A stretch of 64,000 nucleotides of DNA, taken from an uncultured Gemmatimonadales bacterium. Lineage in GTDB: Bacteria; Gemmatimonadota; Gemmatimonadetes; Gemmatimonadales; Gemmatimonadaceae. Made by a program: the position numbers. The stretch lies in NCBI GenBank assembly GCA_963793305.1, contig CAWBZV010000003.1, forward strand, positions 128,001 to 192,000. Direction: 5' to 3'. Shown here one piece after another: positions 30,001 to 36,000 of this stretch; position 1 is the stretch's first letter; each line of letters opens with the position of its first letter.

Positions 30001-33000
30001 CCCACATACGCCGCCGCGCGCTTCTCACGCGCGATGCGGATGAGCGTCGGCACGAACCCATGGTCGCCGTCGCCGTGCACTGATGGAGGCAAGCGTACGA
30101 CCGATACGTTGACCCCACGTGTGGCCATGGCGTTTGCCGCCTCCTCTGACTTGATGCGCGGCACGGTCGACGTCGGCGCATCGTCCTCGGCGGCCGGGCG
30201 ACCGTCGGCTCGCGTCACGAGACCGGTGCCGGACGTGATCACGAGTGGGCGGTTGGAGCCGGCGAGCGCGGAGCCGAGCGCCTCGATGGCGAGCCGGTCG
30301 TTCTCGCAGTTCTCAGCCCACTTCGAGAAGTCGTGGTTGAACGCGGTGTGAATCACGCCGTCCGCTGCGGACGCGCCGCTGCGCAGGCTGTCGAGATCCT
30401 CGATCGACCCACGATGGACTTGGGCGCCGGCGGCAGCGAGCGATTTCGCGCTCGCGTCCGAGCGAGCGAGACCGACCACTTCGTGGCCGGCGTTGATGAG
30501 CTCAGGCACGAGGCTAGAGCCAATAAATCCGGTTGCTCCAGTGAGAAAAATTCGCATGTAGGATTGATAGTCGTTGCAACGGGACGATCTATGCTATAAA
30601 ATCCGGATAATCTTTGCTATCGTCCGGTGAAACGATGGATCCGCTATCAGAACGTCGTCTCTCTTCTCAAACCACGCAGCTACCTGTCCGCGGGCTTCGA
30701 CGCCGGCGGAAAGTGGTCGGTCCAGTTCGCCAGGCACGACGGGTTCATCAAGTGCTATGCGGTGGTGAGGGGATGGTGCTGGCTCGCGGTTGACGGCGTT
30801 CCCGATCCGGTGCGCCTCGACGCCGGCGACTGCTTCCTCCTCGCGAGCGGGCGGCCGTTTCGCCTGGCGGCAGACCTGACGGCAACACCCGTTGACGCCG
30901 AGGCGATTTTTTCAGCCGCCCGATACGGTGGCGTCGCCGTGTGCAATGGTGGAGGCGAATTCTTTCTCGTCGGGAGCCGCTTCGCCGTGAGCGGCCATCA
31001 CGCGGGCATGCTCCTCGGCGTGCTGCCGCCGATCGTGCACATCAGGAACGAATGGGACCAAGCCGCGCTGCGCTGGTCGGTCGAGCGCATGATGCACGAG
31101 CTGCGGGATCCTCGCCCGGGCGGGTTTCTGGTCGCCGAGCATCTCGCGCACATGATGCTGTTGCTCGCGTTGCGGCTGCAGGTCACCGAAGGGCGCGTGG
31201 GCTGGCTCTTCGCGCTCGCCGACAAGCAAATCGGTGCGGCGATCGGCGCCATTCACGACGACCCAGGGCACCCTTGGACTCTGGCCGAGTTGGCGAAACG
31301 CGCCTTCATGTCGCGATCGACGTTTGCGCTGAAGTTCAAGGCGATGGTCGGGACGTCGCCGATGGAGTACCTCACGCAATGGCGCATGCTTCGCGCTGGC
31401 GACCGTCTGACAACCTCCCGCGATTCGATCTCGCTGGTCGCCGCATCACTCGGTTACGAATCCGAGAGCGCCTTCAGCACGGCGTTTAAGCGCGTCATGG
31501 GCTGCTCCCCCCGGCGCTACGCAAATCGCCCGAATCCCGTCGCTGTCGCTTGACTTCGGTGTTTGTTCGGGCTATCGTTACGGCCGCCCGAGAGTCGGGG
31601 CGTGGTGTCATTACACGAAGAGGGGGCCGACGTGCGCGGCTGGCGGGCGGAGGCAGTGCGGCCGCGAGGCGTGGCGGAAAACGCGGCCGCGTTGGCCGAC
31701 CGCGGTCTTATCGTCGCGATGCGATGCCACGACCGCGGAGCGTTGGCCGAGTTCTACCGGCGGTTCCGCCCGGTGCTCGTTGTCGCCGCGCGGCGATTGA
31801 CCGCGGATGCGGTCGACGGCGAGGCAATCGTGGAGGATGTGTTGACGGATGCGGCGGTGCACTTCGTCTCGACGACGACACCGGTTCCTGGCTCGGTGGC
31901 CGGGTACCTGGTTCGCATGCTGCGCAACCGCGTACTCAACGCGTTGCGCGCGCGCAATCGTCACGACACCCGCATCGCCGACTCGTCCTGCATGTCGGAG
32001 CACGCCGAGCGAACGAGCGCCGGCGCTGATCACGAGGTCGAGCGGCAGACGACGCCGGCGCCGGCCGTCGCGCGCCTGGCCGCGGCGCTCGATGCGGCGA
32101 TGAGCGAGGACGACCGCATGTTGGCCACGTGGCTCGCGAATGGCATCGCGCAGCAGCAGATCGCCGATTGGGTCGGCGTGAGCTATCCGGCGCTGTGCAA
32201 GCGCGTCAGTCGTCTCCGCGCACGGCTGCGTACCGTCGCCGAGCGTCACGTGAGCGCGTCGAGCACTGACGATCGTCGCGCGCTGGCGCCGTTCCTGAAG
32301 CTCGAAGAGCTCGGCGCAGCCGAGCTCAGGCCAACCGACCAGTCGAGCAGCGCGGAACGCGGTGCATCGACGCGCGGCGGAGCCGCGCCTCTGGTATGAG
32401 CGACTCTATGAGCGACTCTCAGGGCGAGCTGTTCGAGCGGAGCTCACACGAGCCCGAGCACGACCCGTCGGACGCGCTGATCGACCTCGTCGGCAAGCGC
32501 GTTGTTCCGGCATTGGGCTCGCGGCGATTCTGGGATTGGTACACGCGCGCGTGTCGCGCCGGACAAACCGCCGACGAACGGCGTGAGACCGAGTCCGGCG
32601 TCACGGCATTTCTCGATCGCGTGGGCGCGCGACTCGCGACGCTCGACGCACCACTCGTTCGCGTTGCGGGCGCGGCGCCGCGACATGCGGCACTCATAGT
32701 AGGTCCCGTCTCGCAAGTGTTGACGCCGGCGCTCGCCTCCGGCGCCGCGCCACTCGTCGAGGCCGGCGTGGCCGCGGGCGCCGGCCGCGAATTGTGGGAC
32801 GAAGTGACGGACGCGTGGGTGGCGGTGCCGAACGACTTGCCGGCGCGACGCTACGTCGCGATGCGCGTGAGCGGCGATAGCATGACGCCGCTGCTCCACT
32901 CCGACGATGTCGTGCTCATCGACCTTGACAACAACGATACAACCGCGGGTTCGATCATCGTCGCGCGCAACAACGACGATGGCTACGTGGTGAAACAGGT

Positions 33001-36000
33001 CACCGCCACCGATGGTTTCGACATCGTTCTCGGTTCACTCAACCCCGCGTATGCACCGATGCGCATCACATCTTCGAGTGGAGTAGTACTCGGTCGCGTC
33101 GTGCTGCGATGGTGCGAGCACTGAGATATTTCTCTTTGGCACCTGCAAACCCTGACACCACGTGCGGCATCTCATCGTACGAACAGCAGGAACCCCAAGA
33201 CAACAGGGAGATGAGATGCGGAAGTGGTATTCGGGCGCTGCCCTCGCGGTGGCGCTCATGGGAGCGGTCGCGTTTACGAACGCCTCGCGCACGAACGAAA
33301 CGGCGCCGATCGAAGGCCGCGTGATGGACTTGGAAGGTCTCATCATTCAGCGCGCCCACGTGCGCGTCACCGATGAGACGACGGGCGCGTCGACCGAGAC
33401 GCTGAGTCAGATGAATGGCCGATTCGTGATCGCGAATCTCGAGCCGTCGCACACGTACGCGGTCGATGTCCGCGCAATTGGCTTCGTGCCGTACCACGCG
33501 TCGGGAATTCACCCGACATCAGCGGGTGCTGCGCTGGCCGACGTTCTCGATGGAGCCGATCCCGCCGCTGTCGTCGACGCTCCGCGTAGCCGCTCGTTAG
33601 ACGAGCGGCATCACTTGCTCGGAGAACCGCTCCATCTCTTCGCGCTGCGGGCTGGATTGGAGCAACAGGAGATCAACGCCGGCGGCCGCGAATGCGCGGA
33701 TCCGCTCGGCCACGATCTCCGGCGTGCCGACGAGCTCGGCCCGCAGGCCGCGGTTGGAGACCGAGTAGTCCTCGAGACTGACGGCTTGCTCGAGCTTCGT
33801 GTTGGCGAGCCAGTCCTGGTAGTTGCCGTAACCAGGAGTGCCGGGCGAGACGTTGGTGATACGTGACTTCTCTCGCTCGGCCTCTTCCAGCGTGTCGCGC
33901 ACGATCGCGTAGGCCGCCATACCGTAGGTCATTGGCACCTTGCCGGTGGCGGCACGACGCTGGCGCATGTCGGCGATCTTTGGCGCGATGCGCTCCGGTG
34001 GGTCGCCGTGCATCACGTAGGCGTCGCACCGTGACGAGATGAGCGTCTTCGCCGCCTCGGATTCGCCGCCGGCGTAAATCACGGGAGCGCGGACCGGCTT
34101 TGGCGCCAAGACGGTCTCGTCGACAGAGTAATACTTGCCCTTGTGCGTGAACGTCTCGTTGCACCACGCGCCCTGAATGACCGCGAGCCACTCGTCGGTG
34201 CGCGCGTAGCGATCGTCGTGCTGCTCGAAGTGCACGCCGTAGCGCCGCGCTTCGTCGGCCCACCAGCTGGAGACGACGTTGAGCGACAGGCGCCCGTTCG
34301 AAATGCGATCGATATTCGCGGCCTGCTTGGCGAGAATCGCCGGATTGTGGAACGTCGGCCGCACCGCGACCATGAGCTCGAGCTTCTCGGTGACGGCCGC
34401 GAGCGCGGCAGCCGTGGACCACGCATCGAGCGCCGGCGCGTAGATGCCCTTGATGTCGTTCAGAAACAACTCGGCGATCAGCGTCAGATCGTAGCCGATC
34501 TGCTCGCTGCGCCGCGCCAAGTCGCGCGAGTACTCCCACGTGGCGGCCATCTGTTCGTCGGGGACATTGCGAAGCCAGCCCCCGAACACGGGCATCCAAT
34601 AGCCGTAGCGCATCAGTCGAGGCGAGTGAGGAGATAGTCGACGAGCCGCTCGTGCGGATCAAACCCGACCACGTTCCGCGCATTGGCCACGAAATTGGAC
34701 AGCGCGTTCACATCGTAGAAGTAGTACTCGCCATCGCGATCGTCGACGAGGACTTCGATGCCACCGACGTCCAAGTCGACATGCCGCGCGATATTCTCGA
34801 CGGCCCGGATGATCTCGGCCGGCGGATTGGCCTTCTCGACGCGCATGCCGTTCTTCGGCGCATCGAGCGCACACGCCGATCGGGTCAGCGCCTTCCCGTC
34901 CGTGGTCTGACACACATCGGCCGGGCACAGGTTGTACGAGTCCTCGGCCGGGAACACGTTGATCGCGTACAAGAATTCCCCGCCCAGCGTTTCGAGGCGG
35001 GTGATATGACCATTACGGAGCGGGGCGAGCTCCTGGACGAGCGCGACGCCGTCCACGCCAAAGTCGAGCGACCCCTGCTCGGCCGCCGTGATCAGGCCGG
35101 CCTCATCGTCGAACCGCGTGATCCCGGCACCGCTCCCACCCACGTTCGCCTTGACCAGAATCGGGTACCGGAGCCCCTGCGCCGCCTCGACCGCGGTGGC
35201 GCCAGAGTTTGCGACACCGGTACGGGGATAGGGCAGCCCGAGGGCCGCCAAAGCGTCGAGCTGTATGGCCTTGGACGTGTCCATGGCATACGCCGATGCC
35301 CCGTTGACGACGGGGACGCCGACGCGGGCCAAGTGCCGCAGCCACTGGAGCGTATAGAACGTCGACTGGCTGTGCCCCCGAAGGTAGGCCGAGGGCGAGG
35401 CGCGGTTGAACACGAGGCTATAGGGAACCTCGGTCTCGGACGGATTGTAACGATGCGCGGCGGCATCGAGGCGGACATATGGAACGCGACGCCGGTCGAG
35501 CTCCGTGAACAGCGGGCGAAACCAGTCGGGGTGCTCGTGGTAGATCGCGATGGGTTTCATATTGTATAATCTACATGTGCGAACAACTTGGCGATGACGA
35601 CTCCTCCGACTCCCCCTCCCAGCGGCGCCCCGGAGGCGAAGGGCGGTATCCGCACGTTGGTTACGCGTGGCGTGATCATCGTGTTGGTCATTATAGGACT
35701 CATTTGGGGCGTCAAGAAATTCCTCTACGCCCAGACGCACGAGACCACCGACGACGCACAACTCGCGGGGCACGTCGTCCCGGTCATCCCCAAGGTTGCG
35801 GGCTACGTCCAGCGCGTGCTCGTGGCCGACAATCAGCCGATCAACGTCGGCGATACCCTGGTCGTGCTCGACCCGCGCGACTATACGGTGGCCTTGGACC
35901 AGGCGCAGGCGAACCTCCGGGGCGGCAACGCATCGGGCCGGGCCGGCACCGCCGCCCAGGCGATCAAGGCCGCCCAAGCCCAGCACGCGGCGCTGACCGC

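Follow-up and report, generated by a model that had tools for sequence, protein, structure and literature searches.

We describe an operon that encodes an ECF-like sigma factor and a LexA-type S24 autopeptidase, hereafter referred to as the partner. From sequence comparison we consider it rather probable that LexA derepression, together with RecA*-triggered self-cleavage of the partner acting as a soluble anti-sigma factor, would release the sigma factor. The genome-wide survey's note had advanced this reading; SOS control, the pairing of the genes, the cleavage anatomy and the lack of an HTH all held when more loci were compared, while the anti-sigma role is our inference. The novelty claimed for it also stands, as no LexA-like self-cleaving anti-sigma factor was found in the literature searched.

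The sigma and S24 reading frames share 4 nt (ATGA), as in 101 of 160 sigma-S24 pairs; the overlapping operon described before is real, and its Pfam domains were found again. Among family matches with at least 400 nt of upstream sequence, a sigma gene lies directly 5' of the S24 gene in 147 of 149, which supports the obligate pairing on far more loci than the survey had. S24 homologues occur in 13/61 genomes (this genome counted) and in 5/5 of the genus, and in the cultured Gemmatirosa kalamazoonensis the box, sigma and partner are all on plasmid 2. The two-gene operon is a soil Gemmatimonadota system, and here it lies on the + strand throughout. The gene for an exported-type protein that follows it is in the usual target position of the family, and similar genes are found there in related loci. 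A sigma site of this genome's own variant is absent before this gene, where the best own-site match is 9/14.

Table 1 Features of the operon and its surroundings, with positions in the window (the whole 64-kb stretch of DNA that was analysed).
Feature	Position	Strand	Basis
Sigma70-type promoter TTGACT-N17-TATCGT	31550..31578	+	Sequence
SOS (LexA-type) box TTCGG-N6-TTCGG, direct repeat in promoter spacer	31555..31570	+	PWM
Predicted cognate site of the sigma factor, 18 bp	31593..31610	+	Motif discovery, covariation, second copies, fixed gap
ECF-like sigma factor	31632..32399	+	Revised GTG start (annotated 31602-32399); Sigma70_r2 and TIGR02937 matches
S24 autopeptidase partner, candidate self-cleaving anti-sigma factor	32396..33124	+	242 aa; Peptidase_S24
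Three-helix N-terminal domain of partner, residues 24-84	32465..32647	+	AF2 helices 24-35, 43-55, 59-84
Predicted scissile bond Ala127-Gly128 (= LexA A84-G85)	32774..32779	+	Invariant; loop pLDDT lower
Catalytic Ser162...Lys200 dyad, pocket V189/Y197, acidic D194/D195	32879..32995	+	Aligned to LexA S119/K156
Exported-type protein, carboxypeptidase-regulatory-like domain	33216..33578	+	PF13620, E 3e-13

The sigma protein, whose residues are numbered here after the 265-aa annotation, matches Sigma70_r2 at residues 51-120 and scores above the cut-off of TIGR02937. It is composed of sigma-2 and sigma-4 without sigma-3, which is the ECF (group IV) architecture. The ECF-like domains reported before were thus retained, but not the length: the GTG annotated as the start, at 31602, falls within the sigma factor's own predicted promoter site, and the start was therefore revised to the GTG at 31632, giving a protein of about 255 aa. 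An SD sequence precedes this GTG, and most close homologues are called from it, 8 of the 10 shown beginning there or nearby. The linker of the protein contains a conserved helix, SE..R.S, its C-terminus is extended by helical sequence, and W177 and W190 are conserved. The melting residues Y102 and N109, equivalent to sigmaH W81 and N88, are kept, and base-reading residues are found at the positions of sigmaE R176/S172/R171 and N80/N84. The region-2.2 Gln is not conserved, and both the Gln and the Phe of this region have diverged in this sigma.

The SOS box lies within the spacer of the sigma70-type promoter, which confirms its earlier placement. It is the sole exact copy of its sequence in the window and the best of 10 PWM matches in the 5.7-Mb genome; five of the nine others precede dnaE2, a repair radical-SAM gene, an rSAM-imuA-imuB-like operon, ruvB and recA. 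Similar repeats are also found upstream of lexA, and the genome has two true lexA genes. Over 58 family sites, a TTG at -5 to -3 and TA.A..T after the box are conserved. Of 63 testable non-redundant loci, 56 have the box at the head of the operon, compared with 55 of 4196 250-nt tiles overall. Its apparent restriction to the genus arose only from the third gene that precedes sigma in most loci. These comparisons support the prediction that the operon belongs to the SOS regulon, with a LexA box over its promoter in common with recA, lexA and repair genes. The literature search returned no description of an SOS-box motif for Gemmatimonadota, and our analysis supplies one.

This third gene, the tentatively Rad52/Sak-like gene X, is what the box usually precedes. 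It was missed when a two-gene operon was proposed from the sigma-S24 pair, which itself is correct; gene X is missing here, and neither tblastn nor HMM searches found it in this genome. Its N-domain has the α-β-β-β-α order of the Rad52/Sak/Mgm101 single-strand annealing proteins, from which X differs by an extra three-helix C-domain. The structural scores are weak and near background, the best Foldseek rows being RAD52/Mgm101 with an E of 9e-3 and weaker, and VIA giving a Z of 8.2 and an rmsd of 3.8 over 98 aligned positions; by sequence, X has no match in the PDB. Atlas names it PF27148 Slr1353_N, and the search listing of slr1353 papers gives no function.

The partner matches Peptidase_S24 at residues 119-236 (E 4.5e-18), contains VAAGAGR, GDSM and VVK, and shares the fold of LexA and lambda CI over residues 114-242. 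Structural alignment with LexA gave a Z of 13.7 and an rmsd of 2.7 over 126 aligned positions, covering residues 117-242. Its score against the LexA repressor model TIGR00498 is 24.7 bits, in the C-terminal part only, against a cut-off of 110.95, and against the UmuD model 27 bits, for a cut-off of 110, with an N-region of about 115 residues. A126, A127, G128, G130 and R131 are invariant in 74/74 partners, and all 74, which belong to the S24 fold, have S162 and K200; the LexA/UmuD-type anatomy (AAGxGR, S162, K200) was accordingly borne out. One homologue, P0030 (400 aa), has a tandem duplication of the S24 domain. In LexA, the F203 pocket is described as V79/V82/F111/L113/V146/V153 (10.1101/2023.10.30.564768). 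The equivalent positions A/L123, V125, V154, L156, V189 and Y197 are hydrophobic, with counts among 74 of L56/M7 at 123, V54/I11 at 125 (these two, in the cleavage loop, being mapped by eye), V50/L21 at 154, L68 at 156, V70 at 189 and Y66/F5 at 197. The acidic patch described for LexA (PMC9926225) maps to D194/D195, and D/E194 is found in 70/74 partners; the equivalent of LexA E152 is Gly in 71/74. The RecA of this genome keeps the L2 Met-Phe. These features support an intact self-cleavage anatomy, with Ala-Gly site, Ser/Lys dyad and RecA-F203 pocket, by which the partner would be predicted to cleave itself.

The N-terminal domain of the partner has conserved residues D26, L28, L31, F45 and W48 and a net charge of about 0. 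It has no significant match in the PDB or Pfam, no HTH and no usable Atlas match, in line with the unknown domain of the survey; it is a novel three-helix domain. All 42 matches of its profile carry only PF00717, so that the domain occurs only on this S24, and no sigma-S24 fusion is among 42 longer-length matches. Residues 88-121 form an α/β insert (AF2 pLDDT about 97). Were this insert to pack against the catalytic domain, release of the N-fragment might lag behind cleavage.

The predicted site of the sigma factor consists of a -35-like block (31593-31599), 4 nt and a -10-like block (31604-31610), with the +1 predicted near 31619. A gap of 4 between the 7-nt blocks gave 40 matches, every other gap from 0 to 23 gave 0-9, and the canonical +10 gap gave 4. 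With a spacer of about 7 bp in place of the usual 16-17 bp, the blocks are some 10 bp nearer to each other than those of canonical ECF promoters. This conflicts with the 17-bp optimum described for a solved ECF holoenzyme (10.1101/534826), and since the region-2.2 Gln is not conserved either, it is possible that the sigma does not function as an ordinary subunit of a holoenzyme. No report of a compact ECF-type promoter of this kind was found in the literature searched. DNA6 covaries with sigma residue 200 (z 8.9/9.3, top of about 436 columns of both proteins), to be read beside a control in which DNA23 also reached z 5-8 with the unrelated column S24 187; DNA17 covaries with residue 113 and DNA9 with 195. 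V200 goes with GTA, K/Q200 with GTC and N113 with T, and the invariant R204, equivalent to sigmaE R176, matches the invariant G of the site (PMC1540707). The changes coincide on the S24 tree (9 and 7 changes, 10 joint; 10 and 9, 12 joint). The site covaries mainly with sigma columns. Because one half varies together with the recognition helix of sigma-4 (195-200) and the other with region 2.4 (113), in agreement with held-out loci, the site is assigned to the sigma, and the data support a bipartite site predicted to be read by the sigma and not by the S24 protein.

This 18-bp site, specific to each locus and distinct from the SOS box, is found ahead of sigma and of genes whose products are exported (Ig-like, RHS, HtrA); the survey had named neither this compact promoter nor its likely targets. 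Each of the 35 secondary copies is directed into a downstream gene or the region upstream of it. Among the 59 sites that have a purine-rich, GAGG-like tract, the tract starts at positions 28-31, where the +1 is expected, in 33. This genome has 8 strict and 18 relaxed own-site matches, only two of which, the autoregulatory site and a match immediately ahead of imuA, are well placed; no second copy was found before the downstream gene or before three RHS genes. Three other descriptions of the site were rejected. With canonical spacing (block 1 as -35, -10 at positions 26-30) there is no conserved T and no +10-gap enrichment; directionality and covariation rule out a palindromic operator of the S24 protein; and a recombination repeat is at odds with the variable central 4 nt and with further copies that lie inverted at other genes. 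Small shares of four soil metatranscriptome contig sets cover parts of sigma, of the partner and of the genes downstream, as they occur in close relatives. The ends of two RNA contigs, at 31636/31637, fall 17 nt beyond the predicted +1, although contigs cannot show starts.

In the mechanism that we propose, LexA would repress the sigma70 promoter through the box, behind which the ancestral order of genes is X, sigma, S24 partner. The translationally coupled partner would hold the sigma inactive through its helical N-terminal domain. RecA* would engage the conserved pocket with the Phe of its L2, triggering self-cleavage between Ala127 and Gly128, after which the N-fragment would let go or be degraded. 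The freed sigma would read the compact site (-35-like block at about -26 to -20, -10 block at about -13 to -9), re-transcribe sigma and partner in a feedback, and turn on neighbouring genes for Ig-like, RHS/YD-repeat, small membrane and possibly HtrA proteins. The partner is probably the sigma's inhibitor, binding it and releasing it on cleavage. The top inter-protein MI pair, sigma 52 with partner F72, and a 2.7-fold higher density of pairs with z>4 in the N-domain than in the catalytic domain are suggestive, MI being weak at 74 pairs. Region distance correlations (N-domain 0.53-0.61, catalytic 0.59-0.61) do not single out the N-domain, and mirror-tree correlations were uninformative.

A spacing 10 bp short needs an unusual sigma-4 position, and this, like the obligate coupling and the conserved W177/W190 and C-terminal extension, would suit a partner that, intact or as a released N-fragment, is a co-activator binding the sigma and repositioning sigma-4 for the compact promoter, with cleavage activating it or ending the pulse. 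Phage T4 AsiA/MotA sigma-appropriation is an analogy. We regard this as unlikely, since every DNA-specificity signal found sits in the sigma itself and LexA-family cleavage usually inactivates, UmuD excepted. The same spacing clashes with holoenzyme geometry as described in 10.1101/534826, region 2.2 has diverged and nothing is conserved at the true -35, as might be expected of a regulator derived from a sigma factor that binds DNA without initiating transcription, as a repressor or an activator, with sigma-2 and sigma-4 on adjacent grooves and the S24 protein as a cleavable co-regulator. The uniform direction of the secondary copies, the tract at the expected +1 and the kept melting residues make this quite unlikely, and these sites show no sign of another sigma70 promoter.

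Homologues of the partner are named 'LexA' and 'phage repressor C' in databases, PHROG CI/UmuD matches fall on its C-terminal domain, and UmuDAb is described as repressing via a non-LexA N-domain (PMC4807011). The S24 protein might then be independent of the sigma, as a phage-CI/UmuDAb-like repressor or UmuD-like polymerase subunit sharing its SOS operon. This is distinctly improbable given an N-domain with a net charge of about 0 and no HTH, the near-total coupling and a site specificity that tracks the sigma, and the recurrent neighbours listed include no umuC-like or phage gene family; a repressor is weakened because the cognate DNA site appears to be read by the sigma. An anti-sigma factor could also be cleaved without RecA, as the LexA-like IrvR is described to be (PMC7101444), or constitutively as a timer. 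Two features, E152->G and a Trp close to the loop, are similar to L89P/Q92W/E152A, changes that make LexA hyper-cleavable (10.1101/2023.10.30.564768), but RecA pocket and acidic patch are conserved and the operon is SOS-boxed, which makes this very improbable.

The RecA*-cleaved anti-sigma factor that we favour may be part of a wider picture, to which we give somewhat less than even chances: it would free a Gemmatimonadota-specific sigma that uses the compact promoter with sigma-4 off the flap-tip and directs a DNA-damage-triggered programme of exported proteins, RHS toxin-like ones among them, with promoter codes that are orthogonal between species. With the -35-like element one helical turn closer than canonical, sigma-4 would have to leave its usual flap-tip position. 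If true, SOS would be wired straight to a sigma switch by RecA*-triggered self-destruction of an anti-sigma factor, a new control of alternative sigma factors, and the promoter architecture would lie outside the solved ECF holoenzyme geometry. The residue-to-base code makes predictions that can be tested at once, and it provides a natural series of orthogonal switches inducible by DNA damage.

The partner resembles LexA, lambda CI and UmuD in its catalytic fold, Ala-Gly site, Ser-Lys dyad, F203 pocket and acidic patch. It differs from them in lacking an HTH, in its novel helical N-domain and α/β insert, in E152->G and in its constant coupling to a sigma gene. With ECF sigma/anti-sigma pairs such as E. 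coli sigmaE-RseA and CnrH, the system shares sigma-2 plus sigma-4, a coupled downstream partner and an autoregulatory site; unlike them, it has a soluble partner with its own protease, SOS as input and blocks about 10 bp closer. In the PrtR-PrtN pyocin and colicin SOS cascades, an SOS-driven second tier controls exported or antagonistic proteins, and the repressors bind DNA; to our knowledge, none of these regulators is described as inhibiting a sigma factor. Like the partner, IrvR (PMC7101444) and UmuDAb (PMC4807011) are non-LexA S24 proteins with a regulatory role, proposed in our case, but the available text presents them as DNA-binding repressors and describes neither as inhibiting a sigma factor. 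SigN (ZpdN) of B. subtilis pBS32 likewise comes from a sigma gene under LexA repression, whose own promoter gives positive feedback once DNA is damaged; unlike the system here, it is plasmid-borne and leads to cell death, and the available text mentions no self-cleaving partner (10.1101/624585). RsgI is described as a membrane protein with non-S24, periplasmic self-cleavage that senses polysaccharide, unlike the partner, but it is an anti-sigma factor with autoproteolysis, as we propose for the partner here (PMC10328401).

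The genome-wide survey's note had described an ECF-like sigma factor gene overlapping that of an S24-peptidase protein (the partner, 242 residues), with an SOS box in the promoter spacer and, in the loci fetched, the sigma gene directly upstream, and all of this holds. In 147 of the 149 matches with at least 400 nt upstream (all loci, duplicates included; 32 shorter matches excluded), the S24 start coincides with the end of a sigma ORF, and this coupling is established. One exception is a frameshift artefact with the sigma present (L083), the other an extra, degenerate S24 copy (L024). 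Of 160 pairs, 101 overlap by 4 nt, with lengths computed from the nearest start codon, a choice biased toward overlaps. The annotated sigma start falls within a conserved DNA site, the sigma's own site; a downstream GTG is the likelier start because it is preceded by GAGGGGG and is called in most close homologues. Residue numbers follow the 265-aa annotation.

Coordinates of the operon and of related features (window positions in the host genome unless a contig or locus is named)
Feature	Location	Strand	Description
SOS box	31555-31570		TTCGG-N6-TTCGG, occupying the spacer of TTGACT-N17-TATCGT
Sigma's own site	31593-31599, 31604-31610		Blocks 1 and 2
ECF-like sigma ORF (g01127)	31602-32399		4 nt shared with g01128
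Likelier sigma start	31632		GTG
S24-peptidase ORF (g01128)	32396-33124
Promoter-like stretch	33141-33181		GCAAACCCTGACAC...GCGGCATCTCATCGTAC, before downstream gene; conserved in genus
CarboxypepD_reg-like gene	33216-33866	+	Extends into convergent luciferase-like gene; relatives stop at ~130 aa
RHS-core protein gene	38436-43883	+	1815 aa, secreted (TIGR03696); homologous to RHS genes 3' of operon in relatives
LexA paralogue (L002)	C2:789240-789956
LexA paralogue (L001)	C5:1433049-1433657		Only copy with box-like repeats upstream
ruvB-queA ORF (L188)	C5:125746-127770		Single 675-aa ORF, ruvB in frame into queA
Relaxed sigma-site match (L187)	C4:64684		Directly 5' of imuA-like gene, within SOS-boxed rSAM-imuA-imuB operon
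KaiC/RecA-like ATPase gene (L006)	C3:1004025-1005393		Split over two frames, between response regulator and histidine kinase; strict sigma-site match inside
Degenerate second S24 copy	L024:1453-2280	-	No AAG site or catalytic Ser/Lys; adjoins, upstream, a sigma-S24 pair in genome G008, which has further paralogous pairs
Radical-SAM gene, Gemmatirosa plasmid 2	L192:9548-10600		Divergent, sharing the boxed promoter; resembles head gene of host imuA operon
Truncated second sigma-2-like ORF	L017:1987-2511	+	Immediately 3' of S24 gene

Named homologues belong to the Gemmatimonadaceae. Homologues are present in 13 of 61 relatives, host genome counted, and phylum-wide in 16/251 genomes, all from two families within a single order. 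In a profile search, 147 50%-clusters passed E<=1e-30. We kept 80 of the 99 GTDB loci found, all 80 from Gemmatimonadota, and 80 of 255 metagenome loci. Plasmid 2 of the cultured Gemmatirosa kalamazoonensis holds box, sigma and partner. Two loci (L151, L162) carry two paralogous sigma-S24 pairs, adjacent and convergent, with site variants that apparently differ.

In a non-redundant set of 81 pairs (<85% identity, drawn from 126), the box lies immediately 5' of the sigma gene in just 12, while a third gene, X, precedes the sigma in 64, and the box then heads X. Where an operon is testable, the box stands at its head in 44 of the 46 led by X and in 12 of the 17 without X (18 of the 81 lie outside this count), against a background of 55/4196 tiles of the same loci. 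A matrix of 58 family sites, with the host locus left out and close relatives kept in, found 10 sites of at least 13 bits in the 5.7 Mb genome, the sigma operon promoter ranking first. Of the nine remaining sites, five lie in front of dnaE2, a TIGR03916-like repair radical-SAM gene, an rSAM-imuA-imuB-like operon, ruvB and recA; two more stand before ORFs with no NCBIfam match and two are not annotated. The lexA upstream region has box-like repeats that score under the threshold. X matches phrog_11717 and Atlas clusters labelled PF27148 Slr1353_N; its fold, alpha-beta3-alpha plus three helices, has weak best matches to RAD52/Mgm101/Sak. X was not found in the host genome.

The host genome encodes three S24 proteins, two of which are true LexAs. 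The AF2 model of the partner (66 sequences, pLDDT 84) shows three N-terminal helices (residues 24-84), an alpha/beta segment modelled with confidence (88-121), a cleavage loop of lower certainty and an S24 core matching LexA and lambda CI. Its self-cleavage anatomy is intact: the Ala-Gly linker and Ser/Lys dyad proposed earlier are borne out by A126, A127, G128, G130, R131, S162 and K200, invariant in 74 paired sequences.

Gibbs sampling upstream of the sigma gene gave the motif GT[CA]NN-N...-G[TC]GTC[TA], at 12 bits or more in 57/80 loci. The block 1 invariant G lies 14 nt from the block 2 T; canonical ECF promoters have ~24 nt for this distance. The sigmaH spacer optimum is 17 bp (10.1101/534826). 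The site is one helical turn shorter than a canonical ECF promoter. In a gap scan of 67 loci (1.0 Mb), a 4-nt gap between the 7-nt blocks was the sole enriched one (40 matches); every other gap from 0 to 23 gave 0-9, the canonical +10 gap giving 4. The normal -35 position relative to the site has no conservation. The site is also locus-specific: the region 3' of the S24 gene fits its own locus's variant (>=12/14 positions) in 22/62 loci, as against 30/3602 distant cross-pairs.

Across 64 loci, the strongest covariation of block 1 bases is with sigma residues 200, 196, 199 and 195, and that of block 2 bases with 113 and 120. In stringent sets of 36 representatives (<55% identity) and 32 (<45%), over ~436 columns from both proteins, DNA6-200, DNA17-113, DNA9-195 and DNA14-120 still rank first and DNA7-196 and DNA16-113 first or second; positions 8, 18 and 20 no longer have a clear partner. 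One control DNA position gave z values of 5-8 with a column unrelated to it, and z by itself is therefore no proof. On an S24-based tree, site and sigma changes for the most part occur together (9 and 7 changes, 10 joint; 10 and 9, 12 joint). Aligned with E. coli sigmaE and Mtb sigmaH, R204, K200 and C199 correspond to sigmaE R176, S172 and R171, N109 to sigmaH N88, and N113 to sigmaE N84, which we take to be a known contact residue. The code was checked on nine further regions, two of which proved duplicates of training loci. It fits automatically in five (L194, L197, L198 at ~50% identity, L199, L202 at 76-79%); in L192 and L196, where the search window had been set wrongly, inspection by eye showed a first block that fits, the second block of L192 being degenerate and the L196 site lying upstream of X. 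These data establish a sigma-specific DNA code with compact spacing. SigmaE R176, S172 and R171 read the -35 element (PMC1540707) and sigmaH N88 the first -10 base (10.1101/534826).

We collected 35 secondary site copies, eight of them inverted and directed at the divergent side. The products of the genes behind them are for the most part exported or located in the membrane: nine are of an unnamed Ig-like family, seven are small membrane-type proteins, six are HtrA/DegP (~265 nt off) and one is a YD-repeat protein; there are others, and three genes are without a call. Downstream of the operon there is a member of the Ig-like family in 21/81 loci and an RHS-type gene in 15/81. In the host genome the autoregulatory copy is the only certain sigma site. 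The imuA-adjacent match may be chance, given 18 relaxed matches genome-wide. The window's RHS gene has neither sigma site nor SOS box upstream; the genome has several further RHS loci. The stretch after the operon looks like a canonical ECF promoter of a different sigma, and a frameshift is possible in the CarboxypepD_reg-like gene, since relatives' RNA contigs differ by 1 nt near 33544.

We consider it probable that the partner is a self-cleaving anti-sigma factor of the adjoining sigma. LexA would repress the boxed promoter, the partner would bind and inhibit the sigma, RecA* would trigger its release, and the sigma would then initiate transcription at the compact site. The evidence for contact between the two proteins consists of weak mutual information (top pair sigma 52/partner 72), pairs with z>4 making up 0.40% within the N-domain and 0.15% within the catalytic domain. 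That the partner is a co-activator seems to us unlikely. A GAGG-like tract begins at site positions 28-31, the expected +1, in 33 of the 59 sites with a tract found (of 69), and a sigma-like regulator that does not initiate transcription is slightly less plausible again.

The partner's N-domain has no HTH and no match in PDB, Pfam or Atlas; its net charge is near zero and it was seen on this S24 protein alone. An independent repressor or UmuD-like role is improbable. The RecA-docking anatomy is intact: the LexA pocket for RecA F203 (V79, V82, F111, L113, V146, V153; 10.1101/2023.10.30.564768) maps onto conserved hydrophobic residues in the 74 sequences, the acidic patch (PMC9926225) onto D194/D195, and the host RecA keeps the L2 Met-Phe. 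LexA E152 is replaced by Gly in 71/74. Cleavage without RecA is the reading we rate lowest, as very improbable.

The literature searched, mostly outside subscription journals and available in part, yielded no S24/LexA-type anti-sigma factor, no SOS box of Gemmatimonadota and no ECF with such a short spacer. In the portions available of the ECF reclassification (PMC7826278), the main text has neither LexA nor S24, and S24 appears in the supplement solely as signal peptidase near ECF02. As far as the accessible parts of these sources go, the nearest known systems to the self-cleaving anti-sigma proposed here are SigN, a LexA-repressed sigma (10.1101/624585), RsgI (PMC10328401), IrvR (PMC7101444) and UmuDAb (PMC4807011).
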